Below are positions 1-32,423 of a stretch of DNA of 64,000 nt, piece by piece. A program made the position numbers and the translations under genes. The stretch comes from Amphiscolops sp. MND2022 (taxonomy: Eukaryota): positions 71,054,001-71,118,000 of the forward strand of contig OZ076409.1 in NCBI GenBank assembly GCA_964187785.1. The letters run 5' to 3'. The notes beneath the pieces are model-generated. The model did no database searches. It saw only the letters and a list, made by a program, of their open reading frames with translations, and had not been told where the DNA came from. The stretch's first letter is position 1; each line of letters opens with the position of its first letter.

Positions 1-904
1 TGCCATATATCAAAAGTAGGTTTAGACAAGGACCTATCGGAAACATGTGGTTTGGGACCCCCTGGACCAACCCGTTAGCAGGAAATGGGGCTTCCGGCCC
101 GTTTTTTTACGGTTAAAAACGGAAAATGGGCATTGAGGGGTAAATATCTCGTGAACGCGTGGAGCTACGGTGTCCTTCACTACTACAAGGTTTCATACCC
201 ATGATATGGTGCCTTCAGGGGGGCAAACAGATTTCCGCTATCTATCACCGTTACGGACTTGGCCCCCCAGCCTAACCGCTAAGTGACCGGAAATGTCACT
301 TTTTGAGCCCAAAGGGTCGGTCCCAGCCAGGGAACGTTAGGTAACTTATTGTAGTACTCATTGAGATGAGTTGGGGGACATAGTTTCAGTCACCCCCCGT
401 TACCCCTTAAGACCGGAAATGACCGTTATGTGAGTAAATTTGCCGTTTTTGTCCTATTTGAAGGGCATTTAGATGCGGAAGGAGTGGTAATAGGTGCTTG
501 GACACTATATGAGGTAAGGGAGGATATGAGGCGAGCATTCGGAAATAACAGTTATGTTGACCCCAAAGTCCCCCTGGTACCGTAAACGACCGGAAATGGT
601 CAAATTTTGTGTTTCTAGGGCACAAATGTTTGGTTTTTTAAGCATTAAAGTACAGGTTAGGTGTTTCGACGTTCTGCAGTAGTGAACATAGTCATGAAAC
701 CTTGTGGGGGGTAACGGTATACAGCACCGGAAGTCCAAACCGTTGGTCATAGAATAGGTTTTTGGTTACAAAATGTCTTCAGCCGTAGTTTTGTTGGTTG
801 AATTGTCATAATATCAACTATTATGGACTTGTAATGGAAGTAAAATTTTTTCACATTAGTTTCAGGGACCTCCAATGTTTCAGTCAACATAACCGTTACA
901 TTTT

Positions 905-948
905 GATAGCCTGTCAAGTTGGCCTGGTGTCAACTTGGAAGGGCTATC
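905..948 (+). other. Representative ~44-nt bulged hairpin of classes H, B and C
   Basis: GATAGCC..CAAGTTGGC-CTGGT-GTCAACTTG..GGCTATC; variants at 6113-6155 and 7732-7776 keep the pairing. Confidence 0.88.
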
Positions 949-1243
949 CTTCTAAAATCGGTATTCACGAATGTTTTTGGGTAGGTATATACTGCATTAG
1001 TACCAATTAGAGCTTCATCAACAGTTTACCAACGACAAAAACTATGTCCTGATGATTCCGTTATTAGAATAAAAGTTAACAAATTTTTGAAAAAGTTGAC
1101 TTTTTACATTTCAAATGTGTCCTAAATGCCAGGAAACCTATTTAAATAACAAAAGGAATTGATTGAAACTAAATATTAGGTTAAAAAAAAGTTACTTCGT
1201 TCCGTTATGGAAGCTGAAACGTCATATAATAGTGTAATTAACG

Positions 1244-1359
1244 TCAACGCCACATACTTTACATCAACGCCCACCGTCCGTAGGCATGCCGAGGCATGCC
1301 TTTCGACGACGTATACCAAATTCCACCCACACAACACCCTCGAGCGCGGTAGCAGCTAG
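1244..1359 (+). other. Representative conserved 3' module: paired TCAACGCC repeats, GGCATGCC palindrome, variable tail, CTAG
   Basis: TCAACGCC at 1244 and 1264; AGGCATGCC-GA-GGCATGCCT at 1282-1301, flanked by CGTC/GACG; CTAG at 1356-1359. Present before every joint. Confidence 0.92.
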
Positions 1360-2330
1360 GTGGCCGTGTCTTTTCGACGTGCTTTTGCATCGAGGAGTGG
1401 GTAGGGCCCCGCGACGACCTAGAAGAATTGGATGCTCACCGAAACGTGCAGAATTCTACGAGATCTCATAGTTTGAGCCATACGATTTTTCTGAAATTTG
1501 GCATGTGGCCTGGAATTGGTGAGTAGGTAAAACGTGTAGGAGGTGATTTTTCCCAAATTCCACTGTGAGACGAGATATGGGCAAATAACGGTCCCAAAAA
1601 TGGCAAAAATGCACTTTTTTCAAGTTTGTCAGCCCATATCTCGTTCCCAGGTGCCCGGAGCGGGACGCGTTAAGCTGATTATAAACTCTAGGGTGTTGAG
1701 GCTGTACGGTGAACTTGGGCCCGTTCCGATCCGACTTGTAGTCTTGGAGAAATAACGGTATTTTTGGGGAACCTTTTCTAACGGTCCAGCTTATCTTTGC
1801 CATTTTTTCGAAAATGTACTCGCCTAAAGGCCTCCCCCTGGCCGAATTTACTCCCAGCAAAACCATTTGGCCCTAAATACGGAGTTTCAGCGTTCCAGCA
1901 TTCCCGGGCGAAAAGTTGTGGGACTTGGAAAATTTTCAAAAATTTTCAAAAAAATTTTTTTTCGTTTTCCGGGCCCCCAATGAAGGGGAAACGACCCCCC
2001 AACCAGTATTTTGAGTGAATTCATGTGGAAAGCCCTTGTTTTGACGAGAAAAATACCGTTTAGAACATCTTTTTATCTTGACTCAACGTTGACTTATGAC
2101 GTTTTGAATGTGATGTAAGGATGTAGGAGGCATGTGATAAGTTGATGTTTTGAGTCTTTATCTCATATGAAAGCGGTTGAGATGCAAGCTGTCCTGCTCA
2201 AAACGTCTTTCGTTGTAATTTTCCAGTGCACCAATACCCTTTGGTGTCATATAAACATACTTTTTGTCGATATATTAACAATTTTAATGTATTTATTCCA
2301 ATTTTTATTATCTTATAACTCAAAACAGTT

Positions 2331-2373
2331 GAGTACATTTCATCTCCCTTTCGGGGGAGATGAGAATGTACTC
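2331..2373 (+). other. Representative ~43-nt bulged hairpin of the 1.3-kb classes
   Basis: GAGTACATTTCATCTCCC..GGGAGATGAGAATGTACTC with one extrahelical purine; seen in classes A, D and F. Confidence 0.88.
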
Positions 2374-2559
2374 GCTAAAGACCTAGCGCCATGACCAAAA
2401 GTTTGAAACCCACGTTTTTTATCTTCTTACAGACTTGTTTTTGTATTTTTTCGGAATTTTTTAAAAATTAATATACTTGAAATACATTACTTGACTTTAC
2501 TACTACAACCCACCTCCAACGACAACGCCCCCCTGCTTGCATCAACGCCCACCGTCCGT

Positions 2560-2579
2560 GGGCATGCCGAGGCATGCCC
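2560..2579. promoter_or_regulatory. Palindrome GGGCATGCCGAGGCATGCCC: hairpin and 19/20 match to the p53-family response element (representative of 42 copies)
   Basis: Two abutting decamers, GGGCATGCCG and AGGCATGCCC, against the consensus RRRCWWGYYY. The sequence match is direct; function is inferred. Confidence 0.4.
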
Positions 2580-3896
2580 TTCGACGACGTATGCCAAATG
2601 CCCAGTGCCACGCAGTCATTATCGCTAGGTGGCCGTGTCTTTTCGACGTGCTTTTGCATCGAGGAGTGGGTAGGGCCCCGCGACGACCTAGAAGAATTGG
2701 ATGCTCACCGAAACGTGCAGAATTCTACGAGATCTCATAGTTTGAGCCATACGATTTTTCTGAAATTTGGCATGTGGCCTGGAATTGGTGAGTAGGTAAA
2801 ACGTGCAGGAGGTGATTTTTCCCAAATTCCACTGTGAGACGAGATATGGGCAAATAACGGTCCCAAAAATGGCAAAAATGCACTTTTTTCAACTTTGTCA
2901 GCCCATATCTCGTTCCCAGGTGCCCGGAGCGGGACGCGTTAAGCTGATTATAAACTCTAGGGTGTTGAGGCTGTACGGGGAAGTCAGGCCCGTTCCGATC
3001 GGACTTGTAGTCTTGGAGAAATAACGGTATTTTTGGGGAACCTTTTCTAACGGTCCAGCTTATCTTTGCCATTTTTTCGAAAATGTACTCGCCTAAAGGC
3101 CTCCCCCTGGCCGAATTTACTCCCAGCAAAACCATTTGGCCCTAAATACGGAGTTTCAGCGTTCCAGCATTCCCGGGCGAAAAGTTGTGGGACTTGGAAA
3201 ATTTTCAAAAATTTTCAAAAATTTTTTTTTCGTTTTCCGGGCCCCCAATGAAGGGGAAACGACCCCCCAACAAGTATTTTGAGTGAATTCATGTGGAAAG
3301 CCCTTGTTTTGACGAGAAAAATACCGTTTAGAACATCTTTTTATCTTGACTCAACGTTGACTTATGACGTTTTGAATGTGATGTAAGGATGTAGGAGGCA
3401 TGTGATAAGTTGATGTTTTGAGTCTTTATCTCATATGAAAGCGGTTGAGATGCAAGCTGTCCTGCTCAAAACGTCTTTCGTTGTAACTTTCCAGTGCACC
3501 AATACCCTTTGGTGTCATATAAACATACTTTTTGTCGATATATTAACAATTTTAATGTATTTATTCCAATTTTTATTATCTTATAACTCAAAACAGTTGA
3601 GTACATTTCATCTCCCTTTCGGGGGAGATGAGAATGTACTCGCTAAAGACCTAGCGCCATGACCAAAAATTTGAAACCCACGTTTTTTATCTTCTTACAG
3701 ACTTGTTTTTGTATTTTTTCGGAATTTTTTAAAAATTAATATACTTGAAATACATTACTTGACTTTACTACTACAACCCACCTCCAACGACAACGCCCCC
3801 CTGCTTGCATCAACGCCCACCGTCCGTGGGCATGCCGAGGCATGCCCTTCGACGACGTATGCCAAATGCCCAGTGCCACGCAGTCATTATCGCTAG

Positions 3897-6695
3897 GTGG
3901 CGGGGGGCTGTCCCCAATAGAATATAGTGAGGTAGGGTAGGGTTCCCTACCGAACATTCAGTACTGAAGGACTCTTGTAGTATGAAAATTTTTCGATGTT
4001 TTGAGACCGATTTCGGATTCCACCCGTCAGAAGTTTATGATTTTTTGGCCCCCACCCAGATTTTGGGCACTGATCGCCCCCCACCAGGTTCCATACCCGT
4101 GGTTTCGTTGTGACGGGTACACGAGCGACCGTTAGGGGTCAATCAGGGGGTAAAATTTATAAAAGTGTGAATAACTTTTCCCCCCGTCGTTTTAGCAGGT
4201 CCGGTCACTAGTAAAGGTTTGTTGGGCATCATGCAGTGGGTACGGGGGGCCAAACAAAAATTTTCTATCATGCACCGTTACGGACTTGGCCCCCCGCCCA
4301 AACCGCTATTTTACCGGAAATTGCACTTTTTGAACGGGAAGGAGTCGTCTGAGCGCGGAGTCGTTTGGTAATGTTTTGTAGAGCATCTGAAGACGTGGTG
4401 GGGGACATGTAGTTTGCCGACCCCAGTTTACCCCTCGGACGGGAAATGACCGTTATGTTAGTTTTAAAATTGCCCCCCGTCAACTTTAACCGCTATTTCT
4501 GGTGTGAAGGAGTCGGAACAGCGTGTCGGGTGCTATATATCAAAAGTAGCTTTAAACAAGGACCTATCAGAAACATGTGGTTTGGGACCCTTTGAACGGA
4601 CCCGTTAGCCGGAAATAGGGTGACCGCCTCCTTTTTTTGGTGTTAAAACCGTAAAACGGGCATTAAAGTGAAATTATCTCGTGAACGCGTGGAGCAATCG
4701 TGTCCATCACTCCTACAAGGTTTCATACCCATGACATGGTGTCTTCAGGGGGGCAAACAGATCAGCGCTATCTATCACCGTTACGGACTTTGCCCCCCAG
4801 CCTAACCGCTATATTACCGGAAACTGCCCTTTTTGACCGGGAAGGAGTCGTCTGAGAGTGGAGTCGTTAAGTAATGTTTTGTAGAGCATCTAGAGACGTG
4901 TTGGGGGACATGTAGTTTGCCGACCCCTGTTTACCCCTCGGACGGGAAATGACCGGTATGTTAGTTTTAAAATTGCCCCCCGTCAACTTTAACCGCTATT
5001 TCTGGTGTGAAGGAGTCGGAATAGCGTGTCGGGTGCTACATATCAAAAGTAGCTTTAAACAAGGACCTATCAGAAACATGTGGTTTGGGACCCTTGGAAC
5101 GGACCCGTTAGCCGGAAATAGGGTGACCGCCCCCTTTTTCTGCGGTTAAAATTGTAAAACGGGCATTGAAGTGGAATTATCTTGGAAACGCGTGGAGCTA
5201 TAGTGTCCTTCACTACTACAAGGTTTCATACTCAAGATACGGTGCCTTCAGGGGGGAAAACAGATTACCGCTATATATCACCGTTACGGACTTGGCCCCC
5301 CAGCCTAACCGCTATGTTACCGGAAATGTCATTTTTTGAGCCAAAAGGGTTAGTCCCAGCGTGGGAACGTCAGGTAACTTTATGTAGAACTCAATGAGAC
5401 GAGTTGGGGGATATGGTTTCAGTCACCCCCCGTTGACCCGTTAGACCGGAAACGACCGTTATGTAGTGAAAAATGTAATTTTTATACTTTTTGAAGGCCA
5501 TTTAGGGCAGGAAGTATCGGTAATATGTCTTTGGACAGTATACAATGAAAGTTTTGGTGTGAAACAAGCAATCTGAAATATCCGTTATTATGATTCGGAA
5601 GTCACACTAACAGCGAAAATGACCGTTATGTAGTGAAAATTTTTTTCACATTTTTTTTGCTTTCGATAGGTCCTTCAAGCCAAGAAGTAGCTGTATTAGG
5701 TCTTTGGCCACTTTATGATGATTGTGGTGTTGTGAGATGACCGTACGAACTTGACCTTTATAATGCCCCTGAAGTTGCTGCGGCACGAGAAATTTCAGAA
5801 AGTTTGTCTTTTCTGTGTTTTGTTGGAATAAACATTTAATTTCATTAAACCAATGTGCATTCAGGGTGTTTAGAAAGCTTCAAGAAAAGAATTTAATAGG
5901 AAACATGGCGGTGAGAAATAACAAATTGCCACGTAAATCCAACCCCCGTTGGGGAATAAATGTAATAAATTGTTTTGGAAGTGCCAATCGACGTGTATTT
6001 GCGGATCATAGCCACGGTATTGTCTATTCGTGTTTCTTTTTGAAGACTTTGAACATTTTCACTTTATCAGCTTGAGGTTTTAACTCTATATGCTTAATAA
6101 CCGTTACAATATGATAGCCCTCAAGTTGACCTTGTGTCAACTTGAAAGGGCTATCCTTTCACAACTGCGCAGCAACAGTGTGATTGAGTGATTTAGTTAT
6201 TATCCAAGGCCAATTTGAACTTCAACAAGATTTTAACCACAATATTTAAAACTATTCATATGATTCTTTCAAAAGGGTAAATATTTAACTAATATTTGAC
6301 AAAAAAACTCCAACCTTTAATTTGTGGACCGAATAGTAGGAAAACCATGTTTCTTAACGTTGTTGGATGAAATTCAAAATGATGCTTTTAAAAGAATAAC
6401 AATTCTTGACACTATATATTTTTTCTATTTTCCAATAAACTATTTTTCCAAAAGTCTATTTTTCCAATAAACATTGTTGATTGATGCCCATTCATAGTGA
6501 CTGGAAAGTTTTACCAACTGTGGTGTTTTTTTTTAATCAGAGGTGAAACCGCTCCCTACCGTCGCATAATGTAATTCAAGCCGACGCCCACATGCCAACA
6601 TCAACGCCCACCGTCCGTAGGCATGCCGAGGCATGCCTTTCGACGACGTATGCCAAATCACGCCCCTGCGAGGTCAGTAAAGCGGTAGCGGCTAG
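3897..6695 (+). mobile_element. Singleton class B unit (2799 bp), diverged relative of class H with an extra 503-bp subrepeat
   Basis: Head GTGGCGGGGGGCTGTCCCC; body aligns by eye to class H; GATAGCC-type hairpin at 6113-6155; shared 3' module. Confidence 0.6.
4273..5460 (+). repeat. Internal direct repeat with 503-bp period (two full copies plus a diverging third)
   Basis: CACCGTTACGGACTT starts at 4273, 4776 and 5279, with long colinear similarity between the first two copies. Confidence 0.9.
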
Positions 6696-8084
6696 GTGGT
6701 TGGGGCGGTCCCCAGAACGCACAAGGAGGCGCGGGGAGGGTCCTGCGCCGACGTAGAATAATTTCATATAATACTAGTATCCTACATGGGTGTTTTAGAG
6801 GCGATTTTGGAATCTAACCGTAGGATTTGGATAATTTTTTGCATGCGGCCATAACTCGAAATTCTAAGAACTTTTTCCTACTGTCATTTTCCCCGCAAAT
6901 TGTTTTTTGTTGACTTATGGCCGAAAAACCGGAAATAACGTCCTTTTTAGACGTTATATCCGAAGTGTCGTCATAACTTTTTTCCAGGGCATGCTAGCGT
7001 TCTCGTTCACTTTTACACTTAGTTGCAGCATCTCAAAATACAACTGGTGGAAAATTTTGGTTGCATTCGGATCACCCCCCACCGAGATAGAAGGGTTCCC
7101 CCCTCCAGTTTTACCCCCCAAAGTTGCAAAATAGTCAAATTTGAGCATGAAGCCGAGGATTTAGCGTACCCGCACTCTCCTGATGTTTTGTTGTACGTAT
7201 TGGGGTCAATCTGACGGCATGTGTGGTTTTCACCCCCAACCCCCCCTTGGACCGGAAATGACACTTTTTTGTGTTTTTTGGCAGAATTTAGCCTTTTTCA
7301 TTATTAGGCAGTCGTTTTAGGGACTCCTAGCAGGATATCGAAATTGAAATACAACCTGATCACAACCCAGTGACAACATGTTGGCCACTTGGAGGTATCA
7401 TCATGACCGGAAGTGGGGTCAACCCCCCTTTTTGTGACCGCTTTTTGACCTTGTGCACCAAAATGCCAACATCTTGAGGCCTAATGAGGCATTCAAATCT
7501 GTACAAAGATAAAATGTTAGACAACCGAAGTCCCGGAAGATCTTTAGCATATACCGGAAGTTACCCCCCATGACCGGAAGTTACCCAATGTGACCGGAAA
7601 TGGTCCAAAAATAAATGTAAAGTTGAATTTTTCACTATTTCAAGACCACTTAATTGAAACTTTTCAATCTCAAAACTAGCGTACTGGCTTGTTTTGCTGA
7701 ATTTATGGAAATTGATAAGCTCTATCGCCCCCGATAGCCTTCGAAGTTGACCTTGCGTCAACTTTGGAGGCTATCGATAAAGAAAAATGAACAACAAAGT
7801 ACATTGTTGCTCTCGTTTTTCTCCCGTTGTTTTCCCTCAAACATTCTTGAGACATATACATGGCCGTTAGTGGAAATCAATATTTAGCCCATGTTATAGC
7901 TGGAGCAGCGAAGCGTTACACAGACTAGTGTGGTTTTGAAATCACACTATTTATATTAACAACTGACCGTCTTAGTCAACTCCACACACTCATACCAACG
8001 CCCACCGTCTGTGGGCATGCCGAGGCATGCCCTTCGACGACGTATGACGAATCCATTCCAAAGACACCCGCAGTCCTCAGCTAG
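6696..8084 (+). mobile_element. Singleton class C unit (1389 bp)
   Basis: Head GTGGTTGGGGCGGTCCCC; distinct body rich in ACCGGAAG; GATAGCC-type hairpin at 7732-7776; shared 3' module. Confidence 0.6.
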
Positions 8085-10648
8085 GTGCCGGTGTTTTTTT
8101 ACACAATGGGGGAAGTTGCGCGTGTGGGGAGGGTCCCTGACGCGCTCCCGGGATTTCGGATTTTTTAACCTTTACGTACCCATCAAAAATTTTGGGATCT
8201 CGAAAACTAGCCGTACGATTTGGCTGAAATTTGGCACACGTACCCCCCTCGGCACGGTGAAGATGATTCCCTACTGACGTTTTGCTCGCTAAACATTTTT
8301 TGTTGACCAAAATAACGGTTTTTGGGGTAAAATTTTCAACATTTTTTAAATTTCATCTTATATCTCGCCACGGGTACACGCTAGCGCTTCCAAACCTTGC
8401 TGACGAAAGTTTGCAAACTGTCTCAGGAATGCTGTGTGAAATTTTCAGCTCAATCGGACTTAAACTCGAGGAGATATAGCGTTTTTCCGGAGCGGGGGGG
8501 TTTCATTTTTCTAACGGTCCAGCTTATCTTTGCCATTTTTTCGAAAATGCACTCGCCTAAAGGCCTCCCCTGGCCGGTTTTATTCCCAGCAAAACCATTT
8601 GGCCCTAAATACGGAGTTTCAGCGTTCTAGCATTCCGGGGCGAAAAGTTGTGGGACTTAGAAAATTTCAAAAATTTTCAAAAAAATTTTTTTCCGTTATT
8701 TGGGCCCTCAAAGTGGGGGAAAAGACCCCCCAACCAGTAAAGCAAGTGAATGCATGTGGAAAGCCCTTGTTTAGACGAGAAAAATGCCGTTTAGAACGTC
8801 TTTTTATCTTAACTTGACATTGACTTTTGCCGTTTTGAAGGTGACCGTTAGATACGGAAAATTGATGTTTTGAGTATTTATCCCATCTGAAAGCCATTGA
8901 GATACAACATGTTTTGCTCAAAACGTGTTTCATTGCAGTTTCGCTGTCCATTATCACCCTTTGGTGTCTTTTCACGTAATTTTCGTTTCTATAATAACAA
9001 TTTTTTTGTGTATTTATTCATTTTTTCTCATCAAATAACTTGAAACAGTTGAGTACATTCCATCTCCCTTCCCGGGGGAGATGAGAATGTACTCGCTAAA
9101 GGTCAGGAACTACGGTCAATATCTTCCACAACACAAAAGGGATTGCAAATGGTTTCAGTTTGTCGCCGAAAACTTCTTTTTGCCCTCTGTGACTCGACAA
9201 AATGAACGTTTCTTACTTACTTTGAAACTCAGCATACCACAACTCATTTCTAACGTCAGCGCCCCCCTACTTGCATCAACGCCCACCGTCCGTGGGCATG
9301 CCGAGGCATGCCCTTCGACGACGTATACCAAGATATACCTGGAGCGCGGTAGCCGCTAGGTGCCGGGATTTCTATTCGATAAAGTATGTGGCGCGCCTTG
9401 GGTAGGGTCCCTTGCGCGCTCTTGGGTATGGTGTTCACCAGCTAGGAAATAGGGGTCGATTTTTCGGGATCTCCTAAACTAGCCACACGATTTGGCTGAA
9501 ATTTGGCACACGTATTCCCCTCGGCACGGTGAAGATGATTTCCTACTGACGTTTTTCCCGCAAAATTTTTTTTGTTGTCCAAAATAACGGTTTTTGGGGG
9601 AAAATTTTGAACTTTTTTTAAATTTCATCTTATATCTCGCCATGGGTTTACGCTAGCGCTTCAAAACCCTGCTAAAGAAAGCTTGCAAACTGTCTCAGGA
9701 ATGCGGTGTGAAATTTTCAGCTCAATCAGACTTAAACTCAGGGAGATATAGCGTTTTTCCGGAGCGGGGGGGTTTCATTTTTCTAACGGTCCAGCTTATC
9801 TTAGCCATTTTTTCGAAAATGTACTCGCCTAAAGACCTCCCCTGGCCGGTTTTATTCCCAGCAAAACCATTTGGCCCTAAATACGGAGTTTCAGCGTTCC
9901 AGCATTCCCGGGCGAAAAGTTGTGGGACTTAGAAAAATTCAAAAATTTTCAAAATTTTTTTTTTCGGTTTTCCGCCCTCCCCCCCGAGGGGAAAAGACAC
10001 CCCAACCAGTAATTTGAGTGAATTCATGTGGAAAGGCCATGTTTAGAGGAGAAAAATCCCGTTTAAATCGTCTTTTTATCTTTATTCAACGTTGACTTAT
10101 GACGTTTTGAAGGTGATGTTTGGAAGGTGTGAAGCACGTGAAAAGTAAACGTTATGAGTATTTATCTGATCTGAAAGCCATTGAGATGCAATCTGTTTTG
10201 CTCAAAACGTAATTCATATCCGTTTGGTAGTCAATCAACACCCTTTGTTATCATTTGACATCTTTTTTTGTTGATATAAGAAAAAATTTTGTGTATTTAT
10301 TCATTTTTTTCTCATCAAATAACTTGAAACAGTTGAGTACATTCCATCCCCCCTTCACGGGGGAGATGAGAATGTACTCGCAAAAAGCCCCAAACTACGG
10401 CCCTTACCTTCCTGAGCTACACAGTATAAAGATTGCATATTGGTTCCGACATTTTGATAGAGTTATATCTTGGTAATCTGTCTGGATATGCAGAAAAACC
10501 AGCACGTGCTTTTTTATACCAAGTTGCTTACAACGACAATTATTTTATATCAACGCCCCCATATTTATCAACGCCCCCCGTCCGTGGGCATGCCGAGGCA
10601 TGCCCTTCGACGACGTATACCAAGATATGTTCGAGCGCGTTAGCCTAG
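8085..10648 (+). mobile_element. Two class D units (1275 and 1289 bp)
   Basis: Heads GTGCCGG; body GATTTGGCTGAAATTTGGCACACGTA..CCCCTCGGCACGG; the two units have different variable windows. Confidence 0.6.
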
Positions 10649-13600
10649 GTGGCCGTGTCTTTTCGACGTGCTTTTGCATTGAGGAGTGGGTAGGGCCCCG
10701 CGACGACCTAGAAGAATTGGATGCTCACCGAAACGTGCAGAATTCTACGAGATCTCATAGTTTGAGCCATACGATTTTGCTGAAAGTTGGCATGTGGCCT
10801 GGAATTGGTGAGTAGGTAAAACGTGTAGGATGTGATTTTTCCCAAATTCCACTGTGAGACGAGATATGGGCAAATAACGGTCCCAAAAATGGCAAAAATG
10901 CACTTTTTTCAACTTTGTCAGCCCATATCTCGTTCCCAGGTGCCCGGAGCGGGACGCGTTAAGCTGATTATAAACTCTAGGGTGTTGAGGCTGTACGGTG
11001 AACTTAGGCCCGTTCCGATCCGACTTGTAGTCTTGGAGAAATAACGGTATTTTTGGGGAACCTTTTCTAACGGTCCAGCTTATCTTTGCCATTTTTTCGA
11101 AAATGTACTCGCCTAAAGGCCTCCCCCTGGCCGAATTTACTCCCAGCAAAACCATTTGGCCCTAAATACGGAGTTTCAGCGTTCCAGCATTCCCGGGCGA
11201 AAAGTTGTGGGACTTGGAAAATTTTCAAAAATTTTCAAAAAATTTTTTTTTCGTTTTCCGGGCCCCCAATGAAGGGGAAACGACCCCCCAACCAGTATTT
11301 TGAGTGAATTCATGTGGAAAGCCCTTGTTTTGACGAGAAAAATACCGTTTAGAACATCTTTTTATCTTGACTCAACGTTGACTTATGACGTTTTGAATGT
11401 GATGTAAGGATGTAGGAGGCATGTGATAAGTTGATGTTTTGAGTCTTTATCTCATATGAAAGCGGTTGAGATGCAAGCTGTCCTGCTCAAAACGTCTTTC
11501 GTTGTAATTTTCCAGTGCACCAATACCCTTTGGTGTCATATAAACATACTTTTTGTCGATATATTAACAATTTTAATGTATTTATTCCAATTTTTATTAT
11601 CTTATAACTCAAAACAGTTGAGTACATTTCATCTCCCTTTCGGGGGAGATGAGAATGTACTCGCTAAAGACCTAGCGCCATGACCAAAAGTTTGAAACCC
11701 ACGTTTTTTATCTTCTTACAGACTTGTTTTTGTATTTTTTCGGAATTTTTTAAAAATTAATATACTTGAAATACATTACTTGACTTTACTACTACAACCC
11801 ACCTCCAACGACAACGCCCCCCTGCTTGCATCAACGCCCACCGTCCGTGGGCATGCCGAGGCATGCCCTTCGACGACGTATGCCAAATGCCCAGTGCCAC
11901 GCAGTCATTATCGCTAGGTGGCCGTGTCTTTTCGACGTGCTTTTGCATTGAGGAGTGGGTAGGGCCCCGCGACGACCTAGAAGAATTGGATGCTCACCGA
12001 AACGTGCAGAATTCTACGAGATCTCATAGTTTGAGCCATACGATTTTTCTGAAATTTGGCATGTGGCCTGGAATTGGTGAGTAGGTAAAACGTGTAGAAG
12101 GTAATTTTTCCCAAATTCCACTGTGAGAGGAGATATGGGCAAATAACGGACCCAAAAATGGCAAAAATGCACATTTTTCAACTTTGTCAGCCAATATCTC
12201 TTTTCCAGGTGCCCGTAGCGTTCCGCACGTGGACATCAATATTGCTCAGCGCTGTTGGAGGAGTGCGTGGACAAATTTTGGTTTAAATCGGACTAAAACT
12301 TGACGAGAAATTAACGGTTTTTTGGGCGTTTCCGGGGTAAATTTTTTAACGGTCCAGCTTATCTTTGCCATTTTTTCGAAAATGTACATGCCTAAAGGCC
12401 TCCCCCTGGCCGAATTTACTCCCAGCAAACCCATTTGGCCCTAAATACGGAGTTTCAGCGTTCCAGCATTCCGGGGCGGAAAGTTGTGTGACTTGGAAAA
12501 ATTTCAAAATTTTTTCAAAAATTTTTTTCCCGTTTTCCGGGCCCCCAATGAAGGGGAACGACCCCCCAACCAGTATTTTGAGTGAATTCATGTGGAAAGC
12601 CCATGTTTGGAGGAGAAAAATGCCGTTTAGCACATCTTTTTATCTTAACTTGACATTGACTTATGACGTTTTGAATGTGATGTTAGGATATATGAAGCAT
12701 GTTAAAAGTTGAAGTTTTGAGTCTTTATCTCATCGGAAAACCATTGAGATACAAGCAGTTTTGCTAAAAACGATTTTCATTGTAGGTTAGCAGAGTATTA
12801 GTACACTTTGATGTCATTTGAGTATTTTTTTCTTCTATATAATAACTGTTTTTATGTATTTATTCCAATTTATCTCATCTTTTACCATCAAGCAGTTGAG
12901 TACATTTCATCTCCCTTTCGGGGGAGATGAGAATGTACTCGCTAAAAACCTAATGCTATGGCGCCAATGTTTGGATGGGAAGTTTTCTATGCTTTGAAAA
13001 AAGTTATTTTTAATTACTTGATTTTTTAAAACAATAATTAACATGAAGTACATTACTTGCTCCTACTACTACCACCATACATCTCTAACGTCAACGCCCC
13101 CTGCTTGCATCAACGCCCCATCGTCCGTGGGCATGCCGAGGCATGCCCTTCGACGACGTATGCCAAATGCCCAGTGCCACGCAGTCTTTTCCCGCTAGGT
13201 GGCCGTGTCTTTTCGACGTGCTTTTGCATTGAGGAGTGGGTAGGGCCCCGCGACGACCTAGAAGAATTGGATGCTCACCGAAACGTGCAGAATTCTACGA
13301 GATCTCATAGTTTGAGCCATACGATTTTTCTGAAATTTGGCATGTGGCCTGGAATTGGTGAGTAGGTAAAACGTGTAGAAGGTAATTTTTCCCAAATTCC
13401 ACTGTGAGAGGAGATATGGGCAAATAACGGACCCAAAAATGGCAAAAATGCACATTTTTCAACTTTGTCAGCCAATATCTCTTTTCCAGGTGCCCGTAGC
13501 GTTCCGCACGTGGACATCAATATTGCTCAGCGCTGTTGGAGGAGTGCGTGGACAAATTTTGGTTTAAATCGGACTTAAACTTGACGAGAAATTAACGGTT

Positions 13601-16600
13601 TTTTGGGCGTTTCCGGGGTAAATTTTTTAACGGTCCAGCTTATCTTTGCCATTTTTTCGAAAATGTACATGCCTAAAGGCCTCCCCCTGGCCGAATTTAC
13701 TCCCAGCAAACCCATTTGGCCCTAAATACGGAGTTTCAGCGTTCCAGCATTCCGGGGCGGAAAGTTGTGGGACTTGGAAAAATTTCAAAATTTTTTCAAA
13801 AATTTTTTTTCCCGTTTTCCGGGCCCCCAATGAAGGGGAACGACCCCCCAACCAGTATTTTGAGTGAATTCATGTGGAACGCCCATGTTTGGAGGAGAAA
13901 AATGCCGTTTAGAACATCTTTTTATCTTAACTTGACATTGACTTATGACGTTTTGAATGTGATGTTAGGATATATGAAGCATGTTAAAAGTTGAAGTTTT
14001 GAGTCTTTATCTCATCGGAAAACCATTGAGATACAAGCAGTTTTGCTAAAAACGATTTTCATTGTAGGTTAGCAGAGTATTAGTACACTTTGATGTCATT
14101 TGAGTATTTTTTTCTTCTATATAATAACTGTTTTTATGTATTTATTCCAATTTATCTCATCTTTTAACATCAAGCAGTTGAGTACATTTCATCTCCCTTT
14201 CGGGGGAGATGAGAATGTACTCGCTAAAAACCTAATGCTATGGCGCCAATGTTTGGATGGGAAGTTTTCTATGCTTTGAAAAAAGTTATTTTTAATTACT
14301 TGATTTTTTAAAACAATAATTAACATGAAGTACATTACTTGCTCCTACTACTACCACCATACATCTCTAACGTCAACGCCCCCTGCTTGCATCAACGCCC
14401 CATCGTCCGTGGGCATGCCGAGGCATGCCCTTCGACGACGTATGCCAAATGCCCAGTGCCACGCAGTCTTTTCCCGCTAGGTGGCCGTGTCTTTTCGACG
14501 TGCTTTTGCATCGAGGAGTGGGTAGGGCCCCGCGACGACCTAGAAGAATTGGATGCTCACCGAAACGTGCAGAATTCTACGAGATCTCATAGTTTGAGCC
14601 ATACGATTTTTCTGAAATTTGGCATGTGGCCTGGAATTGGTGAGTAGGTAAAACGTGTAGAAGGTAATTTTTCCCAAATTCCACTCTGAGACGAGATATG
14701 GGCAAATAACGGTCCCAAAAATCGCAAAATTGCACTTTTTTCAACTTTGTCAGCCCATATCTCGTTCCCAGGTGCCCGGAGCGGGACGCGTTAAGCTGAT
14801 TATAAACTTTAGGGTGTTGAGGCGGTACGGTGAACTTGGGCCCGTTCCGATCGGACTTGTAGTCTTGGAGAAATAACGGTATTTTTGGGAAATTTTTTCT
14901 AACGGTCCAGCTTATCTTTGCCATTTTTTCGAAAATGTACTCGCCTAAAGGCCTCCCCCTGGCCGAATTTACACCCAGCAAAACCATTTGGCCCTAAATA
15001 CGGAGTTTCAGCGTTCCAGCATTCCCGGGCGAAAAGTTGTGGGACTTGGAAAAATTTCAAAAATTTTCAAAATTTTTTTTTTAACGTTTTCCGGGCCCCC
15101 AATGAAGGGGAAACGAACCCCCAACCAGTATTTTGAGTGAATGCATGTGGAAAGGCCATGGTTAGAGGAGAAAAATGCCGTTTAGATTGTCTTTCTATTT
15201 TAACTTGACATTGACTTATGACGTTTTGAATGTGATGTTAGGATGTGTGAGGCATGTGAAAAGTTGATGTTTTGAGTCTTTATCTCATATGAAAGCAATT
15301 GAGATGCACGCTGTCCTGCTCAAAACGTCTTTCGTTGTAGTTTTCCAGTGCACCAGAACCCTTTGGTGTCATTTGAACATACTTTTCTTCGGTTTATTAA
15401 CATTTTTAATGTATTTATTCCAATTTTTATTATCTTATAGCTCAAAACAGTTGAGTACATTTCATCTCCCTTTCGGGGGAGATGAGAATGTACTCGCTAA
15501 AGACCTAGCGCCATGACCAAAATTTGAAGCGCACGTTTTGTATCTTCTTACAGACTTGTTTTTGTATTTTTTCGGATTTTTCTAAAAAATAATAATATAC
15601 TTGAAATACATTACTTGACTTTACTACTACATTCCACCTCCAACGTCAACGCCCCCCTGCTTGCATCAACGCCCACCGTCCGTGGGCATGCCGAGGCATG
15701 CCCTTCGACGACGTATGCCAAATGCCCAGTGCCACGCAGTCATTTTCGCTAGGTGGCCGTGTCTTTTCGACGTGCTTTTGCATCGAGGAGTGGGTAGGGC
15801 CCCGCGACGACCTAGAAGAATTGGATGCTCACCGAAACGTGCAGAATTCTACGAGATCTCATAGTTTGAGCCATACGATTTTTCTGAAATTTGGCATGTG
15901 GCCTGGAATTGGTGAGTAGGTAAAACGTGTAGAAGGTGATTTTTCCCAAATTCCACTGTGAGACGAGATATGGGCAAATAACGGTCCCAAAAATGGCAAA
16001 AATGCACTTTTTTCAACTTTGTCAGCCCATATCTCGTTCCCAGGTGCCCGGAGCGGGACGCGTTAAGCTGATTATAAACTCTAGGGTGTTGAGGCTGTAC
16101 GGGGAAGTCAGGCCCGTTCCGATCGGACTTGTAGTCTTGAAGAAATAACGGTATTTTTGGGGAACCTTTTCTAACGGTCCAGCTTATCTTTGCCATTTTT
16201 TCGAAAATGTACTCGCCTAAAGGCCTCCCCCTGGCCGAATTTACTCCCAGCAAAACCATTTGGCCCTAAATACGGAGTTTCAGCGTTCCAGCATTCCCGG
16301 GCGAAAAGTTGTGGGACTTGGAAAATTTTCAAAAATTTTCAAAAATTTTTTTTTTTCGTTTTCCGGGCCCCCAATGAAGGGGAAACGACCCCCCAACCAG
16401 TATTTTGAGTGAATTCATGTGGAAAGCCCTTGTTTTGACGAGAAAAATACCGTTTAGAACATCTTTTTATCTTGACTCAACGTTGACTTATGACGTTTTG
16501 AATGTGATGTAAGGATGTAGGAGGCATGTGATAAGTTGATGTTTTGAGTCTTTATCTCATATGAAAGCGGTTGAGATGCAAGCTGTCCTGCTCAAAACGT

Positions 16601-18302
16601 CTTTCGTTGTAACTTTCCAGTGCACCAATACCCTTTGGTGTCATATAAACATACTTTTTGTCGATATATTAACAATTTTAATGTATTTATTCCAATTTTT
16701 ATTATCTTATAACTCAAAACAGTTGAGTACATTTCATCTCCCTTTCGGGGGAGATGAGAATGTACTCGCTAAAGACCTAGCGCCATGACCAAAAATTTGA
16801 AACCCACGTTTTTTATCTTCTTACAGACTTGTTTTTGTATTTTTTCGGAATTTTTCAAAAATTAATATACTTGAAATACATTACTTGACTTTACTACTAC
16901 AACCCACCTCCAACGACAACGCCCCCCTGCTTGCATCAACGCCCACCGTCCGTGGGCATGCCGAGGCATGCCCTTCGACGACGTATGCCAAATGCCCAGT
17001 GCCACGCAGTCATTATCGCTAGGTGGCCGTGTCTTTTCGACGTGCTTTTGCATTGAGGAGTGGGTAGGGCCCCGCGACGACCTAGAAGAATTGGATGCTC
17101 ACCGAAACGTGCAGAATTCTACGAGATCTCATAGTTTGAGCCATACGATTTTTCTGAAATTTGGCATGTGGCCTGGAATTGGTGAGTAGGTAAAACGTGT
17201 AGAAGGTAATTTTTCCCAAATTCCACTGTGAGAGGAGATATGGGCAAATAACGGACCCAAAAATGGCAAAAATGCACATTTTTCAACTTTGTCAGCCAAT
17301 ATCTCTTTTCCAGGTGCCCGTAGCGTTCCGCACGTGGACGTCAATATTGCTCAGCGCTGTTGGAGGAGTGCGTGGACAAATTTTGGTTTGAATCGGACTG
17401 AAACTTGACGAGAAATTACCGGTTTTTTGGGCGTTTCCGGGGTAAATTTTTTAACGGTCCAGCTTATCTTTGCCATTTTTTCGAAAATGTACATGCCTAA
17501 AGGCCTCCCCCTGGCCGAATTTACTCCCAGCAAACCCATTTGGCCCTAAATACGGAGTTTCAGCGTTCCAGCATTCCGGGGCGGAAAGTTGTGGGACTTG
17601 GAAAAATTTCAAAATTTTTTCAAAATTTTTTTTTCCCGTTTTCCGGGCCCCCAATGAAGGGGAACGACCCCCCAACCAGTATTTTGAGTGAATTCATGTG
17701 GAACGCCCATGTTTGGAGGAGAAAAATGCCGTTTAGCACATATTTTTATCTTAACTTGACATTGACTTATGACGTTTTGAATGTGATGTTAGGATATATG
17801 AAGCATGTTAAAAGTTGAAGTTTTGAGTCTTTATCTCATCGGAAAACCATTGAGATACAAGCAGTTTTGCTAAAAACGATTTTCATTGTAGGTTAGCAGA
17901 GTATTAGTACACTTTGATGTCATTTGAGTATTTTTTTCTTCTATATAATAACTGTTTTTATGTATTTATTCCAATTTATCTCATCTTTTAACATCAAGCA
18001 GTTGAGTACATTTCATCTCCCTTTCGGGGGAGATGAGAATGTACTCGCTAAAAACCTAATGCTATGGCGCCAATGTTTGGATGGGAAGTTTTCTATGCTT
18101 TGAAAAAAGTTATTTTTAATTACTTGATTTTTTAAAACAATAATTAACATGAAGTACATTACTTGCTCCTACTACTACCACCATACATCTCTAACGTCAA
18201 CGCCCCCTGCTTGCATCAACGCCCACCGTCCGTGGGCATGCCGAGGCATGCCCTTCGACGACGTATGCCAAATGCCCAGTGCCACGCAGTCATTATCGCT
18301 AG
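10649..18302 (+). mobile_element. Six class A units (1269-1282 bp, three subtypes)
   Basis: Same class A head; internal joints at 11917, 13198, 14480, 15752 and 17022. Confidence 0.6.
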
Positions 18303-19584
18303 GTGGCCGGGAATTTTTTTTTCCACATAAATCTTTGCCACTGGGGTAGGGGCCCCGAGTGGCTGTTGTTCGGTTTACTTCCCATAGGATTTGCCCGCTG
18401 CGGAGACGATCTCAGAAACTAGCCATACGATTTGGCTCAAACTTGGCACAGAGCCTCCTTGAAAGATTATAAGAACTTTTTCCTATTGGCGTTTTTCGAT
18501 TGAAATATTTTATGTTGACCAAAATTGCGTTCAAAGTGTCCATTGTTGCGTAATTTTTGTCTTTTTCAACTTTGATGGTCCATAACTTTTTTTGAGATGC
18601 CCGGAGCGGGTCGCACGTGGTGAACAATATTGCTGGGCACTTCAAGAGCTGTCCGTAGACAAATTTTAGTCCAGATTGGAAAAAAATTGATGGAGTAATA
18701 GCCGCAAATCGCACACATTTTGTCGAATTTTTTCGGAACACTAGTCTATCTCTGCCGTTTTTTGCCCAGATTTTTTTCCAGGACCTCTCCTAAAGGCCTC
18801 CCCTGGCCGGTTTACCTCCCAGAAAAACCATTTGGCCTTAAATACGGAGTTTCAGCATTCCAGTATTCCCCGGGTAAAAGATAAATGACTTAGAATTTTT
18901 TTCGAAAAATTTTCAAAAATTTTTTTTCAACTTCAGGCCTCCCAAAGTCAGGAATTTTCCACACAACTAGTATTGCAAGTGAATGCATGTGGAAAGTGCT
19001 TGAATAGACAAGAAAAATGAGCTATTATACGACTCTGTAGCTTAATCTGACGTTGACTTATGACAATTTTAGTAAGAGCTTCCTATGTGAGAAAAAAATT
19101 CAAAAAGTGAAAATTGAATCTAAGTCTCATCCAAAACTCATCGGAATACGTTCAATTCACACCAGAGCGGTTCAATTCCAGTTGTATAGTGCAGCAACAC
19201 CATTCAAGGTCTTTTGGTCCATTTTTATAACTTTTGACACCGTCTTGTTCATCCGATAGCACAAAACAGTTGAGTACATTCCATCTCCCCCCTTGTGGGG
19301 GAGATGAGAATGTACTCGCTAAAAGTCAGGTACTATAGCGCCCATTTTTATTTATTCGACGCTAGTGATGCTATTGCACACGAATACAATAGTTTTGTCA
19401 AATCATGTTTGACATGATGAATCTTACTTTACCTTTAGTTTACGTTTACCTACTACTACAACATCGCAGCCCTAACGTCAACGCCACACACTCTCACTAA
19501 CGCCCACTGTCCGTGGGCATGCCGAGGCATGCCCTTCGACGACGTATGCCAAATAGCGCCACAGGGCGCAAACATTCCCGCTAG
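18303..19584 (+). mobile_element. Class F unit (1282 bp), diverged member of the 1.3-kb group
   Basis: Retains the central block AAAACCATTTGGCC.TAAATACGGAGTTTCAGC, the GAGTACATT hairpin (19272-19317) and the 3' module; the rest is strongly diverged. Confidence 0.6.
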
Positions 19585-22500
19585 GTGCCGGGATTTCTAT
19601 TCGATAAGGTATGTTGCGCGTGTGGGTAGGGTCCCTGGCGCGCTCTTGGGTATGGTGTTCACCAGCTAGGAAACAGGGGTCGATTTTTCGGGATCTCCTA
19701 AACTAGCCACACGATTTGGCTGAAATTTGGCACACGTACTCCCCTCGGCACGGTGAAGATGATTTCCTACTGACGTTTTTCCCGCAAAATTTTTTTTGTT
19801 GTCCAAAATAACGGTTTTTGGGGTAAAATTTTGAATTTTTTTTAAATTTTATCTTATATCTCGCCACGGGTTTACGCTAGCGCTTCAAAACCCTGCTAAA
19901 GAAAGCTTGCAAACTGTCTCAGGAATGCGGTGTGAAATTTTCAGCTCAATCGGACTCAAACTCAGGGAGATATAGCGTTTTTCCGGAGCGGGGGGGTTTC
20001 ATTTTTCTAACGGTCCAGCATATCTTTGCCATTTTTTCGAAAATGCACTCGCCTAAAGACCTCCCCTGGCCGGTTTTATTCCCAGCAAAACCATTTGGCC
20101 CTAAATACGGAGTTTCAGCGTTCCAGCATTCCCGGGCGAAAAGTTGTGGGACTTAGAAAATTTCAAAAATTTTCAAAATTTTTTTTTTCGGTTTTCCGCC
20201 CTCCCCCCCCGGGGGAAAAGACCCCCCAACCAGTAATTTGAGTGAATTCATGTGGAAAGGCCATGTTTAGAGGAGAAAAATCCCGTTTAAATCGTCTTTT
20301 TATCTTTATTCAACGTTGACTTATGACGTTTTGAAGGTGATGTTTGGAGGTGTGAAGCACGTGAAAAGTAAACGTTATGAGTATTTATCTGATCTGAAAG
20401 TCATTGAGATGCAACCTGTTTTGCTCAAAACGTAATTCATATCAATTTGGTAGTCAATAAACACCCTTTGTTGTCATTTGACATTTTTTTTTGTTGATAT
20501 AAGAAAAAATTTTGTGTATTTATTCATTTTTTTCTCATCAAATAACTTGAAACAGTTGAGTACATTCCATCCCCCCTTCACGGGGGAGATGAGAATGTAC
20601 TCGCAAAAAGCCCCAAACTACGGCCCTTACCTTCCTGAGCTACGCAGTATAAAGATTGCATATTGGTTCCGACATTTTGATAGAGTTATATCTTGGTAAT
20701 CTGTCTGGGTATGCAGAAAAACCAGCACGTGCTTTTTTATACCAAGTTGCTCACAACGACATTTATTTTATATCAACGCCCCCATATTTATCAACGCCCC
20801 CCGTCCGTGGGCATGCCGAGGCATGCCCTTCGACGACGTATACCAAGATATACTTCGAGCGCGTTAGCCTAGGTGCCGGTGTTTTTTTACACAAAGGGGG
20901 ATGTTGCGCGTGTGGGGAGGGTCCCTGACGCGCTCCCGGGATTTCGGATTTTTTAACCTTTACGTACCCATCAAAAATTTTGGGATCTCGAAAACTAGCC
21001 GTACGATTTGGCTGAAATTTGGCACACGTACCCCCCTCGGCACGGTGAAGATGATTCCCTACTGACGTTTTGCTCGCTAAACATTTTTTGTTGACCAAAA
21101 TAACGGTTTTTGGGGTAAAATTTTCAACTTTTTTTAAATTTCATCTTATATCTCGCCACGGGTACACGCTAGCGCTTCCAAACCTTGCTGACAAAAGTTT
21201 GCAAACTGTCTCAGGAATGCTGTGTGAAATTTTCAGCTCAATCGGACTCAAACTCGAGGAGATATAGCGTTTTTCCGGAGCGGGGGGGTTTCATTTTTCT
21301 AACGGTCCAGCTTATCTTTGCCATTTTTTCAAAAATGTACTCGTCTAAAGGCCTCCCCTGGCCGGTTTTATTCCCAGCAAAACCATTTGGCCCTAAATAC
21401 GGAGTTTCAGCGTTCCAGCATTTCTGGGCGAAAAGTTGTGGGACTTAGAAAATTTCAAAAATTTTCATAAAATTTTTTTTTCGTTATTTGGGCCCCCAAA
21501 GTGGGGGAAAAGACCCCCCAACCAGTAAAGCAAGTGAATGCATGTGCAAAGCCCTTGTTTGGACGAGAAAAATGCCGTTTAGAACGTCTTTTTATCTTGG
21601 CTCAACGTTGACTTATGACGTTTTGAAGGTGATGTTTGGAGGTGTAAAGCAAGTGAATAGTAAACGTTATGAGTATTTATCTGATCTGAAAGCCATTGAG
21701 ATGCAATATGGTTTGCTCAAAACGTAATTCATTGCAGTTTGGCAATCAATCAACACCCTTTGTTGTCGTTTGACATACTTTTTGGTTGTTATAATAAAAA
21801 ATTTTGTGTATTTATTCATTTTTTTCTCATCAAATAACTTGGAACAGTTGAGTACATTCCATCCCCCCCTTCCGGGGGAGATGAGAATGTACTCGCAAAA
21901 AGCACCGAACTACGGCCCTTACCTTCCCGAGCTACGCAGTATAAGGATTACATATTGGTTCCGACATTTTCATAGAGTTATATCTTGGTAATCTGTCTGG
22001 ATATGCCGAAAAATCAGCACGTGCCTTTTAATACCAAGTTGCTCACAACGACAATTATTTTATCTCAACGCCCCCATATTTATCAACGCCCCCCGTCCGT
22101 GGGCATGCCGAGGCATGCCCTTCGACGACCCGCACCAAAATATGCGTTAGCGCGTTAGCCTAGGTGCCGGGATTTTCTATTCGACAAGTTTGCGCGCCTT
22201 GGGGAGGGTCCCTTTGCGCGCTTTAAGATCCAGGTGTTTCCAACTCCTAAACGGGCATGTGATTTCGACGATCTCCTAAACTAGCCATACGATTTGGCTG
22301 AAATTTGGCACACGTACCCCCCTCGGCACGGTGAAGATGATTTCCTACTGACGTTTTTCCCGCTAAACATTTTTTGTTGACCAAAATAACGGTTTTTGGG
22401 GTAAAATTTTCAACTTTTTTTAAATTTCATCTTATATCTCGCCACGGGTACACGCTAGCGCTTCCAAACCTTGCTGACGAAAGTTTGCAAACTGTCTCAG

Positions 22501-23434
22501 GAATGCTGTGTGAAATTTTCAGCTCAATCGGACTTAAACTCGAGGAGATATAGCGTTTTTCCGGAGCGGGGGGGTTTCATTTTTCTAACGGTCCAGCTTA
22601 TCTTTGCCATTTTTTCGAAAATGCACTCGCCTAAAGGCCTCCCCTGGCCGGTTTTATTCCCAGCAAAACCATTTGGCCCTAAATACGGAGTTTCAGCGTT
22701 CAAGCATTCCTGGGCGAAAAGTTGTGGGACTTAGAAAAGTTCAAAAATTTTCAAAAATTTTTTTTTCCGTTATTTGGGCCCCCAAAGTGGGGGAAAAGAC
22801 CCCCCAACCAGTAAGGCAAGTGAATGCATGTGCAAAGCCCTTGTTTAGACGAGAAAAATGCCGTTTAGAACGTCTTTTTATCTTAACTTGACATTGACTT
22901 TTGTCGTTTTGAAGGTGACCGTTAGATACGGAAAATTGATGTTTTGAGTATTTATCCCATCTGAAAGCCATTGAGATACAACATGTTTTGCTCAAAACGT
23001 GTTTCATTGCAGTTTCGCTGTCCATTATCACCCTTTGGTGTCTTTTCACGTAATTTTCGTTTCTATAATAACAATTTTTTTGTGTATTTATTCATTTTTT
23101 TCTCATCAAATAACTTGAAACAGTTGAGTACATTCCATCTCCCTTCCCGGGGGAGATGAGAATGTACTCGCTAAAGGTCAGGAACTACGGTCTATATCTT
23201 CCACAACACAAAAGGGATTGCAAATGGTTTCAGTTTGTCGCAGAAAACTTCTTTTTGCCCTCTGTGACTCGACAAAATGAACGTTTCTTACTTACTTTGA
23301 AACTCAGCATACCACAACTCATCTCTAACGTCAGCGCCCCCCTACTTGCATCAACGCCCACCGTCCGTGGGCATGCCGAGGCATGCCCTTCGACGACGTA
23401 TACCAAGATATACCTGGAGCGCGGTAGCCGCTAG
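19585..23434 (+). mobile_element. Three class D units (1288, 1291, 1271 bp)
   Basis: Joints at 20872 and 22163; three different head windows on similar bodies. Confidence 0.6.
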
Positions 23435-28900: not shown

Positions 28901-29811
28901 TACAGCTCAATCAGACTTAAACTCAGGGAGATATAGCGTTTTTCCGGAGCGGGGGGGTTTCATTTTTCTAACGGTCCAGCTTATCTTTGCCATTTTTTCG
29001 AAAATGCACTCGCCTAAAGGCCTCCCCTGGCCGGTTTTATCCCCAGCAACACCATTTGGCCCTAAATACGGAGTTTCAGCGTTCCAGCATTCCCGGGCGA
29101 AAAGTTGTGGGACTTAGAATTTTTCAAAAATTTTCAAAAATTTTTTTTCCGTTATTTGGGCCCCCAAAGTGGGGGAAAGCACCCCCCAACCAGTAAAGCA
29201 AGTGAATGCATGTGGAAAGCCCTTGTTAAGACAAGAAAAATGGCGTTTAGAATGTCTTTTTATCTTAACTTGACATTGACTTTTGTCGTTTTGAAGGTGA
29301 CCGTTAGATACAGAAAATTGATATTTTGAGTATTTATCCCATCTGAAAGCCATTGAGATACAACATGTTTTGCTCAAAACGTGCTTCATTGCAGTTCCGC
29401 TGTCCATTGACACCCTTTGATGTCTTTTGACGTAATTTTCTTTTCTATAATAACAATTTTTTTGTGTATTTATTCATTTTTTTCTCATCAAATAACTTGA
29501 AACAGTTGAGTACATTCCATCTCCCTTCCCGGGGGAGATGAGAATGTACTCGCTAAAGGTCAGGAACTACGGTCTATATCTTCCACAACACAAAAGCAAT
29601 TGAAAATTGTTTCAGTTTGTCGCAGAAAACTTTTCTTTTTGCATTCAGTGACTCGGCAAAGTGAACGATTTTGACCCATATTGAACCTTACTTTACCACA
29701 ACTCATCTCTAACGTCAACGCCCCACACTCATATCAACGCCCACCGTCCGTGGGCATGCCGAGGCATGCCCTTCGACGACGTATGCCAAACACAAACGCG
29801 GTAGCCGCTAG
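25970..29811 (+). mobile_element. Three class D units (1289, 1288, 1265 bp)
   Basis: Joints at 27258 and 28546. Confidence 0.6.
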
Positions 29812-32366: not shown

Positions 32367-32423
32367 GTGCGGGGGGGTAACCCCAACAAATATATTGGAG
32401 GATTCGGGTAGGGTCCTGAATCC
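32367..32423 (+). other. Representative 5' structured head (two hairpins)
   Basis: GGGG-GTAA-CCCC, then GGATTCGGG-TAGGGT-CCTGAATCC. Stems differ between classes but still pair. Confidence 0.8.

Follow-up and report, generated by a model that had tools for sequence, protein, structure and literature searches.

The stretch examined here is a 64,000-nucleotide (nt) piece of the Amphiscolops sp. MND2022 assembly GCA_964187785.1 (contig OZ076409.1, forward-strand positions 71,054,001 to 71,118,000), referred to below as the window. It is one polar array of 43 non-coding units that fills positions 1..64000 on the + strand with no other DNA between the units. Units were obtained by cutting the sequence at the 7-bp word CTAGGTG. 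Unit coordinates start at the C of CTAG. 41 units are complete (1263-2799 bp) and two are cut by the window ends. CTAGGTG is found at 42/42 joints and occurs 42 times in all, on the + strand only, where shuffled sequences lead one to expect 3.3 copies (largest 8). All-against-all BLAST of the 43 units returned no minus-strand matches.

The same BLAST comparison divided the units into nine families, whose names are our own. DK has 15 members, A and H have 11 each, and B, C, E, F, G and Z have one each. Families A, DK, E, F and G are mutually related and 1263-1291 bp long (29 complete units), and H (1971-2065 bp) is related to B (2799 bp). The A/DK/E/F/G group, the B/H group and C have little in common beyond their ends. 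Five divergent families thus hold a length of 1263-1291 bp, and H units hold 1971-1993 bp except for U33. Of the open reading frames (ORFs) of the window, 23 were compared with Pfam (22 of the 28 listed, plus one more) and gave three weak matches, all under the cut-off. The window contains no tRNA and no Rfam match at gathering score; three chance-level Rfam matches were obtained in 1200-9500. Motif scans gave 0 matches for the kinetoplast minicircle, 0 for the CRESS-virus origin and 15 for the hammerhead, compared with 42 joints.

Every family carries a conserved block of 48-49 nt near its right end, and each CTAGGTG lies 27-45 nt downstream of it. We refer to the sequence between the block and the joint as the tail, and to the first part of the next unit as the head. 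19/42 joints are family switches, and these show which side of the joint each piece belongs to. The first-pass annotation of this stretch had listed nine joints at which a tail appeared to travel with the unit before it and a head with the unit after it. Each of the nine coordinates is the first base after the CTAG of a CTAGGTG joint, and the tails are as described. Five different heads indeed follow the A-type tail: those of A (2629), B (3897), E (18303) and two subtypes of DK (25970, 31094). The heads after the H-type tail are, as claimed, of DK (34338, 57243) and H (45281); the head at 62496 belongs to family Z, which had not been named.

Tail type was tabulated against both neighbours at the 42 window joints, a test that the annotation had set beforehand for all joints of the genome, with equal association of tails with downstream heads as the outcome that would count against it. 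No such equality was found. In Mantel tests over all 42 joints tail similarity correlated with the upstream body (r 0.60) and little with the downstream body (r 0.14), and the partial correlations were 0.58 and 0.000. Heads correlated with the downstream body (r 0.75). At the switches themselves, the tail was nearer the upstream family in 13/13 scorable cases (weakest 0.70 vs 0.61) and the head went with the downstream unit in 13/13; 6/19 switches are unscorable each way owing to a singleton family or to a tail or head beyond the window. The singletons F and G have DK-like heads, so that the head does not place these two switches at the core.

How narrowly the switches map was examined by comparing the partners' own ends. 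Identity between them reaches 0-3 nt to the left and 0-4 nt to the right of the core (18/19 evaluable per side), at most 13 bp in total including the core. At joints 10645 and 19581 the shared identity is exactly 7 bp, with none beyond the core. The 48-nt block upstream shows no cross-family exchange at the 13 scorable switches, which bears out the proposal that switches occur at CTAGGTG and not in the longer shared block. Were crossovers spread over the block and the core according to their lengths, the probability of 13/13 in the core would be ∼2e-12, or 4e-9 with a generous 14-bp core, joints being treated as independent in both figures. These results support site-specific joining at or within CTAGGTG, as had been claimed.

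Homologous exchange is also present. The units of a family are mosaics of one another, which shows ordinary homologous exchange within families, and some of the exchanges lie at or beside the 48-nt block. It is confined to related units, and joins between different families, where scorable, are located at the core. Families cluster along the array, with like-family neighbours at 23/42 joints against 10.0 expected. Neighbours of the same family are no closer to each other than to distant copies (A 92.6 vs 91.8%, DK 87.3 vs 88.2%, H 90.6 vs 91.1% identity), therefore units were likely added singly. Near-identical units lie apart (U25 = U27; U01 and U17 99.9%). Together the data argue for unit-by-unit addition in bursts from a diverse pool, which would not be expansion in place. 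Two neighbour pairs of units recur, possibly as higher-order copies.

The mosaics, the clustering and the recurring pairs are also what one might see in a complex satellite whose units are reshuffled through homology or microhomology, or in a library or assembly artefact. We consider this explanation the most improbable of those weighed here. It is opposed by the 48-nt block, which is free of cross-family exchange at the 13 scorable switches, by the seven bases of the joint, which are too few for contig joining, and by the same joint design in two other data sets, the public run X1 and the metagenome that holds contig L001. Ligation of restriction fragments is ruled out, since 85/127 CTAG sites lie uncut inside units and the 43 units all have one orientation.

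One unit suggests where within the word the join is made. U33 contains an extra, perfect copy of the first 93 nt of its own head, which is the only misplaced head- or tail-like piece among the 43 units. The new joint (45370-45376) reads CTTGGTG, and the corresponding site of the full copy (45463-45469) has CTTGCAA. Since the new joint is CTTG|GTG where the parent has CTTG|CAA, the GTG arrived with the incoming copy. The cryptic CTTG site agrees with the core at 3/7 positions, and nothing is duplicated at the target. The chance that a duplication begins at the core is about 0.13% per start position drawn. This one event suggests a join after CTAG, or one base earlier, that does not need 7-bp homology. 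It likewise suggests that CTAGGTG consists of one unit's end, CTAG, and the next unit's start, GTG, and is not an overlap of 7 bp.

The U33 joint bears on two rival mechanisms. A tyrosine recombinase, as in Cryptons or integrons, could build a cassette array if circles with one core integrated by crossover into another core, and folded single-stranded ends could replace the usual arms. The asymmetric 7-bp core would suit a 6-8-bp spacer, and polar, unit-wise addition fits. In Cryptons the ends are not inverted and carry terminal direct repeats of 4-6 bp (PMC3212892), an active Crypton recombines its terminal 5-mer with a matching target (PMC9977147), and integron integrases read structure, not sequence (PMC8946536). 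Cryptons and integron arrays thus share with this array a short joint word, polar unrelated cassettes and structured ends. The Crypton feature of direct repeats at both ends may have a counterpart in the 7-bp word that flanks each unit, but one copy serves two neighbours.

Inverted arms of 11-13 bp around a 6-8-bp spacer were not found: at the central register each of the 41 units can pair 2-6/13 of its flanking bases, none of them conserved, and one unit pairs 10/13 at one shifted register. A classical tyrosine recombinase is doubtful because of this, and the same doubt had been voiced in the first-pass annotation. There is no inverse core of the integron attC kind; the reverse complement of the word never occurs on the + strand, and CACC is present in the block of 28/42. 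The U33 joint formed at a cryptic site that agrees with the core at 3/7 positions only, that is, without core homology, no recombinase was found in the window, and PMC3212892 found animal Cryptons to have no terminal repeats. Joining by such a recombinase therefore appears unlikely.

Alternatively, CTAGGTG could be the 7-bp target duplication of an original host site used by a DDE transposon like Dada, and repeated insertion would leave one copy between neighbours. Dada elements make 6-7-bp duplications, have no terminal inverted repeats, and include two families in tandem separated by one 6-bp duplication (PMC3706591, PMC8869645); fly tandems arise from double insertion at one site (10.1101/158386). 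The present array is far larger and more mixed. It lacks an RNA gene target in the window and a family-shared subterminal inverted repeat equidistant from the core, and the distance from block to core varies from 27 to 45 nt. A comparison of the first and last 200 nt of 11 representative units found no common inverted repeat (longest 9 nt). U33 was made with no duplication of the cryptic site, and covarying hairpins are not described for Dada in the available text of PMC3706591. We judge this explanation a little less probable than a tyrosine recombinase.

Both ends of the units carry hairpins. The right end has, in order, a family-type hairpin 250-540 nt from the end, the 20-nt palindrome found in every family, the tail and CTAG. 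At the left end GTG is followed by a small hairpin and then by one around GG(T/G)AGGG. Of 43 copies of the palindrome, L001 included, 39 have G-C as the outer pair and 4 have A-T, and the palindrome block may be a terminator or binding hairpin of the right end. The internal long hairpin is of two unrelated types, one in A/DK/E/F/G and L001 and the other in B/C/H, with paired stem changes; the pattern used detected this nested hairpin in 41/43 units, 250-540 nt before the unit end. Head stems covary between lineages, as judged by permutations that swap the arms (swapped arms did as well as the cognate ones in 2/720 with six lineages and in 16/362880 with nine groups), a test in which the A and B stems are weak and Z is without the GG(T/G)AGGG motif. 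These stems stay paired while their sequence changes, which points to recognition of a single strand, and the head hairpin may thus be a single-stranded substrate. A third conserved stretch lies about 110-150 nt into the unit (e.g. 1460-1505) in most families and in L001; viral and prokaryote scans with it were blank. A common hairpin across the joint was rejected, as the folds vary between joints among the folds listed. Pairing of a unit's own tail with its own head was not better than with foreign ends (permutation 0.13 and 0.18).

Hairpins of this kind could also fold as RNA. If the cut is placed after CTAG, each unit starts with GT and ends with AG, in L001 too, and the array might then have arisen from structured non-coding RNAs that a site-specific retroelement copied into a single site, or consist of intron-like GT...AG units. 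This is improbable. None of the 41 complete units (0/41) is 5'-truncated, there is no poly(A) or simple-repeat tail, and no Rfam family reached gathering score. Only 3/42 tails have at least 11 pyrimidines in the last 15 nt, which argues against introns and introners, and the bases after GTG do not follow the splice-donor consensus. The units have no internal copies of their ends of the kind present in DIRS and Ngaro elements.

Table 1. Position of joints, end features and selected units in the window.
Feature	Position	Strand	Remarks
U02, family A, 1268 bp	2625..3892	+	Upstream partner at the 3893 joint
Long internal hairpin of U02	3599..3641	+	About 250 nt before unit end
Conserved 48-nt block, common to all families	3809..3856	+	Holds 20-nt palindrome 3828-3847
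Family-specific tail, 36 nt in U02	3857..3892	+	27-45 nt across array; goes with upstream unit
Joint CTAGGTG, A-to-B switch, one of 42	3893..3899	+	Putative cut behind CTAG, or 1 nt before that
U03, family B, 2799 bp	3893..6691	+	H-related; internal tandem ∼505 bp
First head hairpin, small, 4-bp stem in B	3904..3915	+	By eye in most families
Second head hairpin around GG(T/G)AGGG, 33-41 nt past core	3931..3951	+	Stems family-specific yet paired
U04, family C, 1389 bp	6692..8080	+	
Six family A units in a row	10645..18298	+	Neighbour identity 85-99.5%
U13, family E, 1282 bp	18299..19580	+	
Five DK units in a row	34334..40773	+	U25 and U27 identical (100%), U26 (90%) between them
U30 (F) and U31 (G)	40774..43303	+	Bodies distinct, heads DK-like
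Seven family H units in a row, about 1.97-2.07 kb	43304..57238	+	Neighbour identity 88-94%
Extra 93-nt copy of U33 head	45281..45373	+	Begins at core, ends CTTG
U42, family Z	62492..64000	+	Cut by window end; head hairpin differs

The explanation we favour, to which we give an even chance, is that the units are non-autonomous elements of the HUH/RepHel type, 5'-GTG...CTAG-3', that insert at existing junctions. Unit boundaries at the core, a single orientation, ends that are not inverted repeats, hairpins at both ends and the U33 joint are the observations behind it, and from them we infer the enzyme, the circles, the targeting and the 5'-GTG...CTAG-3' extent. A Helitron-like HUH enzyme, encoded elsewhere, would add units singly at existing junctions. 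It would nick one strand before GTG and peel that strand off until the process halted at CTAG, past the conserved hairpin block, and the circle would close as CTAG|GTG. This junction would serve both as start site and as preferred target. All joints of the array are the identical word, therefore each insertion would create a new target and fix the orientation. In U33 the enzyme could have read through to the cryptic CTTG 93 nt into the same unit, closed the circle and reopened it at the true junction, a course that would produce precisely this structure. Homologous exchange would later mix related units internally.

Features of this scheme are reported for known Helitrons. Helraiser forms circles in which CTAG is joined directly to the start, and the junction is cleaved (PMC5876387); wheat Xuan-Feng Helitrons likewise form precise end-to-start circles (PMC13286980). 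Truncated Helraiser copies end in CTTG and bat Helitrons are reported abutting one another (PMC4778049). The 5' ends of Fusarium Helitrons are repeated over 31-85 nt (PMC5148889). Helitrons of Paramecium are target-specific with an absolute orientation bias (PMC13085455), therefore target choice and strict orientation can evolve. The units resemble Helitron1 elements (Helraiser, PMC4778049, PMC5876387; Xuan-Feng, PMC13286980) in the putative CTAG 3' end with CTTG as an alternative, in the hairpin upstream of that end, in having no inverted ends and in precise end-to-start junctions, and insertion beside another Helitron has been reported for the latter.

A number of points weigh against the HUH/RepHel explanation, and several of them separate the units from Helitron1. 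The start is GT and not the 5' TC of Helitron1, with GTG after CTAG at 42/42 joints, and the joint is G|G, where A|T or TT would be expected. The palindrome stops 36-54 nt short of CTAG, and a 16-20-nt palindrome about 11 nt from the 3' end was not found. The 3' CTRR of Helitron1 is matched by CTAG at 42/42 window joints; L001 ends in CGAG, which does not fit CTRR. Here at least 43 units of nine families abut with no host DNA between them. Rolling-circle concatemers predict identical runs, and 3/23 same-family neighbour pairs are at 99% or more; the 23 pairs exclude the cut unit U00, whose neighbour belongs to another family. The cut point rests on the single U33 duplication, which slippage at the common CT.G could also yield. 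The 64-kb window contains no array edge, solo copy or empty site, and the joints are compatible with a target duplication. No RepHel/HUH gene was found among the window ORFs, and no ORF-bearing relative in viral, prokaryote and metagenome scans.

Helitron2, Helentron, HINE and DINE-1 elements (PMC4067079, PMC5148889, PMC7492417) include gene-less derivatives with hairpins at both ends, as seen here. Repeated 5' ends and, in some units, internal tandem repeats are further similarities, as is the 3' hairpin that FoHeli elements have 30-50 nt from the end. The 11-15-bp subterminal inverted repeats of this group were absent from the 11 representative units, and its TT or T-rich flanks were not seen, TT lying within 5 nt of the core at 11/42 joints. 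A tandem scan of the window found no microsatellite in the units, which is a further difference. A HINE-like end at the T pair beside the block was ruled out because the tail follows the upstream unit. On the HUH/RepHel explanation, the units are thus Helitron-like in their working but lie outside Helitron1 and Helitron2/HINE.

Two further HUH groups were compared. Third-clade Helitrons of Paramecium (PMC13085455) have a non-AT target, absolute orientation bias and a terminal tetranucleotide that also differs; their end hairpins covary and some derivatives are without ORFs. They differ in that they insert into telomeric repeats that remain between copies, whereas the copies here abut directly. 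Replitrons (PMC10288648), also HUH elements, insert in a specific orientation, have non-autonomous forms, and carry short terminal direct repeats and a palindrome at the right end, with which the joint word and palindrome of the array are compatible. Their fuzzy right ends and variable duplications are not seen here, and mixed arrays are not described in the available part of PMC10288648. Within the explanation that we favour, Replitrons would be the alternative HUH partner.

More tentatively, and with somewhat less than an even chance, the units could represent an undescribed HUH lineage with 5'-GTG and C(T/G)AG-3' ends that takes its own end-to-start junction as target, so that many non-autonomous families queue in a polar cassette array. 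Tandem transposon insertion and Helitrons with shifted targets are already known. Within the literature covered, which leaves most subscription journals and Repbase outside, we found no description of nine gene-less families with such ends that abut in one polar array of 64 kb or more. Satellites derived from transposons are reviewed in PMC12628747, and no such mixed array is described in the part available.

If such a lineage exists, the array would be an ordered record of insertion bursts, comparable to an integron or CRISPR array. For rolling-circle transposons this would mean a further pair of ends and a safe harbour of their own making. Insertion at their own junction would harm no gene and would build long mixed arrays that annotators would label satellite, which would be a route from transposon to complex satellite with no need of unequal crossing-over. 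As the partner enzyme one would expect a single-strand integrase that is sequence-specific and does not require target duplication. Under either main rival, the locus would still be an unusually large mixed-family cassette array.

Relatives were sought outside the window. Five viral scans, two prokaryote-genome scans and phage records gave 0 matches, and metagenomes gave one. A sixth viral scan with a 16-mer produced five chance matches, with no similarity past the palindrome. The blank prokaryote and viral scans, and a 64-kb stretch in which no gene was detected, point to a eukaryotic host. The one related locus, L001, is a metagenome contig of 1172 bp whose block is identical (51/51) to that of two units. 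Its tail is of a new type, its core reads CGAGGTG, and its head is C-like and keeps a paired stem. The body upstream is A/DK-like, therefore L001 may be a family switch too. The core (L001:879-885) carries T to G at the second base, and the head-loop motif in the window varies T/G likewise.

The public run X1 contains 0.12 of the sampled words. Against 1356-21000 it yielded 36 contigs, 7 of them at 99% or more. In one contig the tail from before 13195 is joined to the head of 19581 with 11 letters common at the core. This tail-head pair is absent from the window; it was seen in a single contig, and X1 is possibly not independent of the window's source. Another observation is an X1 contig that joins 4442 and 4499 on opposite strands. 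No RNA data set holding the sampled words was among the matches listed.

Some families have internal features of their own. The ∼505-bp tandem inside U03 (about 4265-5465) is well kept in B (87% over 700 nt) and decayed in H (about 70% over 175 nt). The word ACCGTTA occurs 151 times over both strands, a strong enrichment, with 7-8 copies per B or H unit; we take it to resemble a Myb-type binding word. Family A units have phased 10-bp A/T tracts at 3198-3225, 16322-16349 and 25273-25300 that suggest bent DNA.

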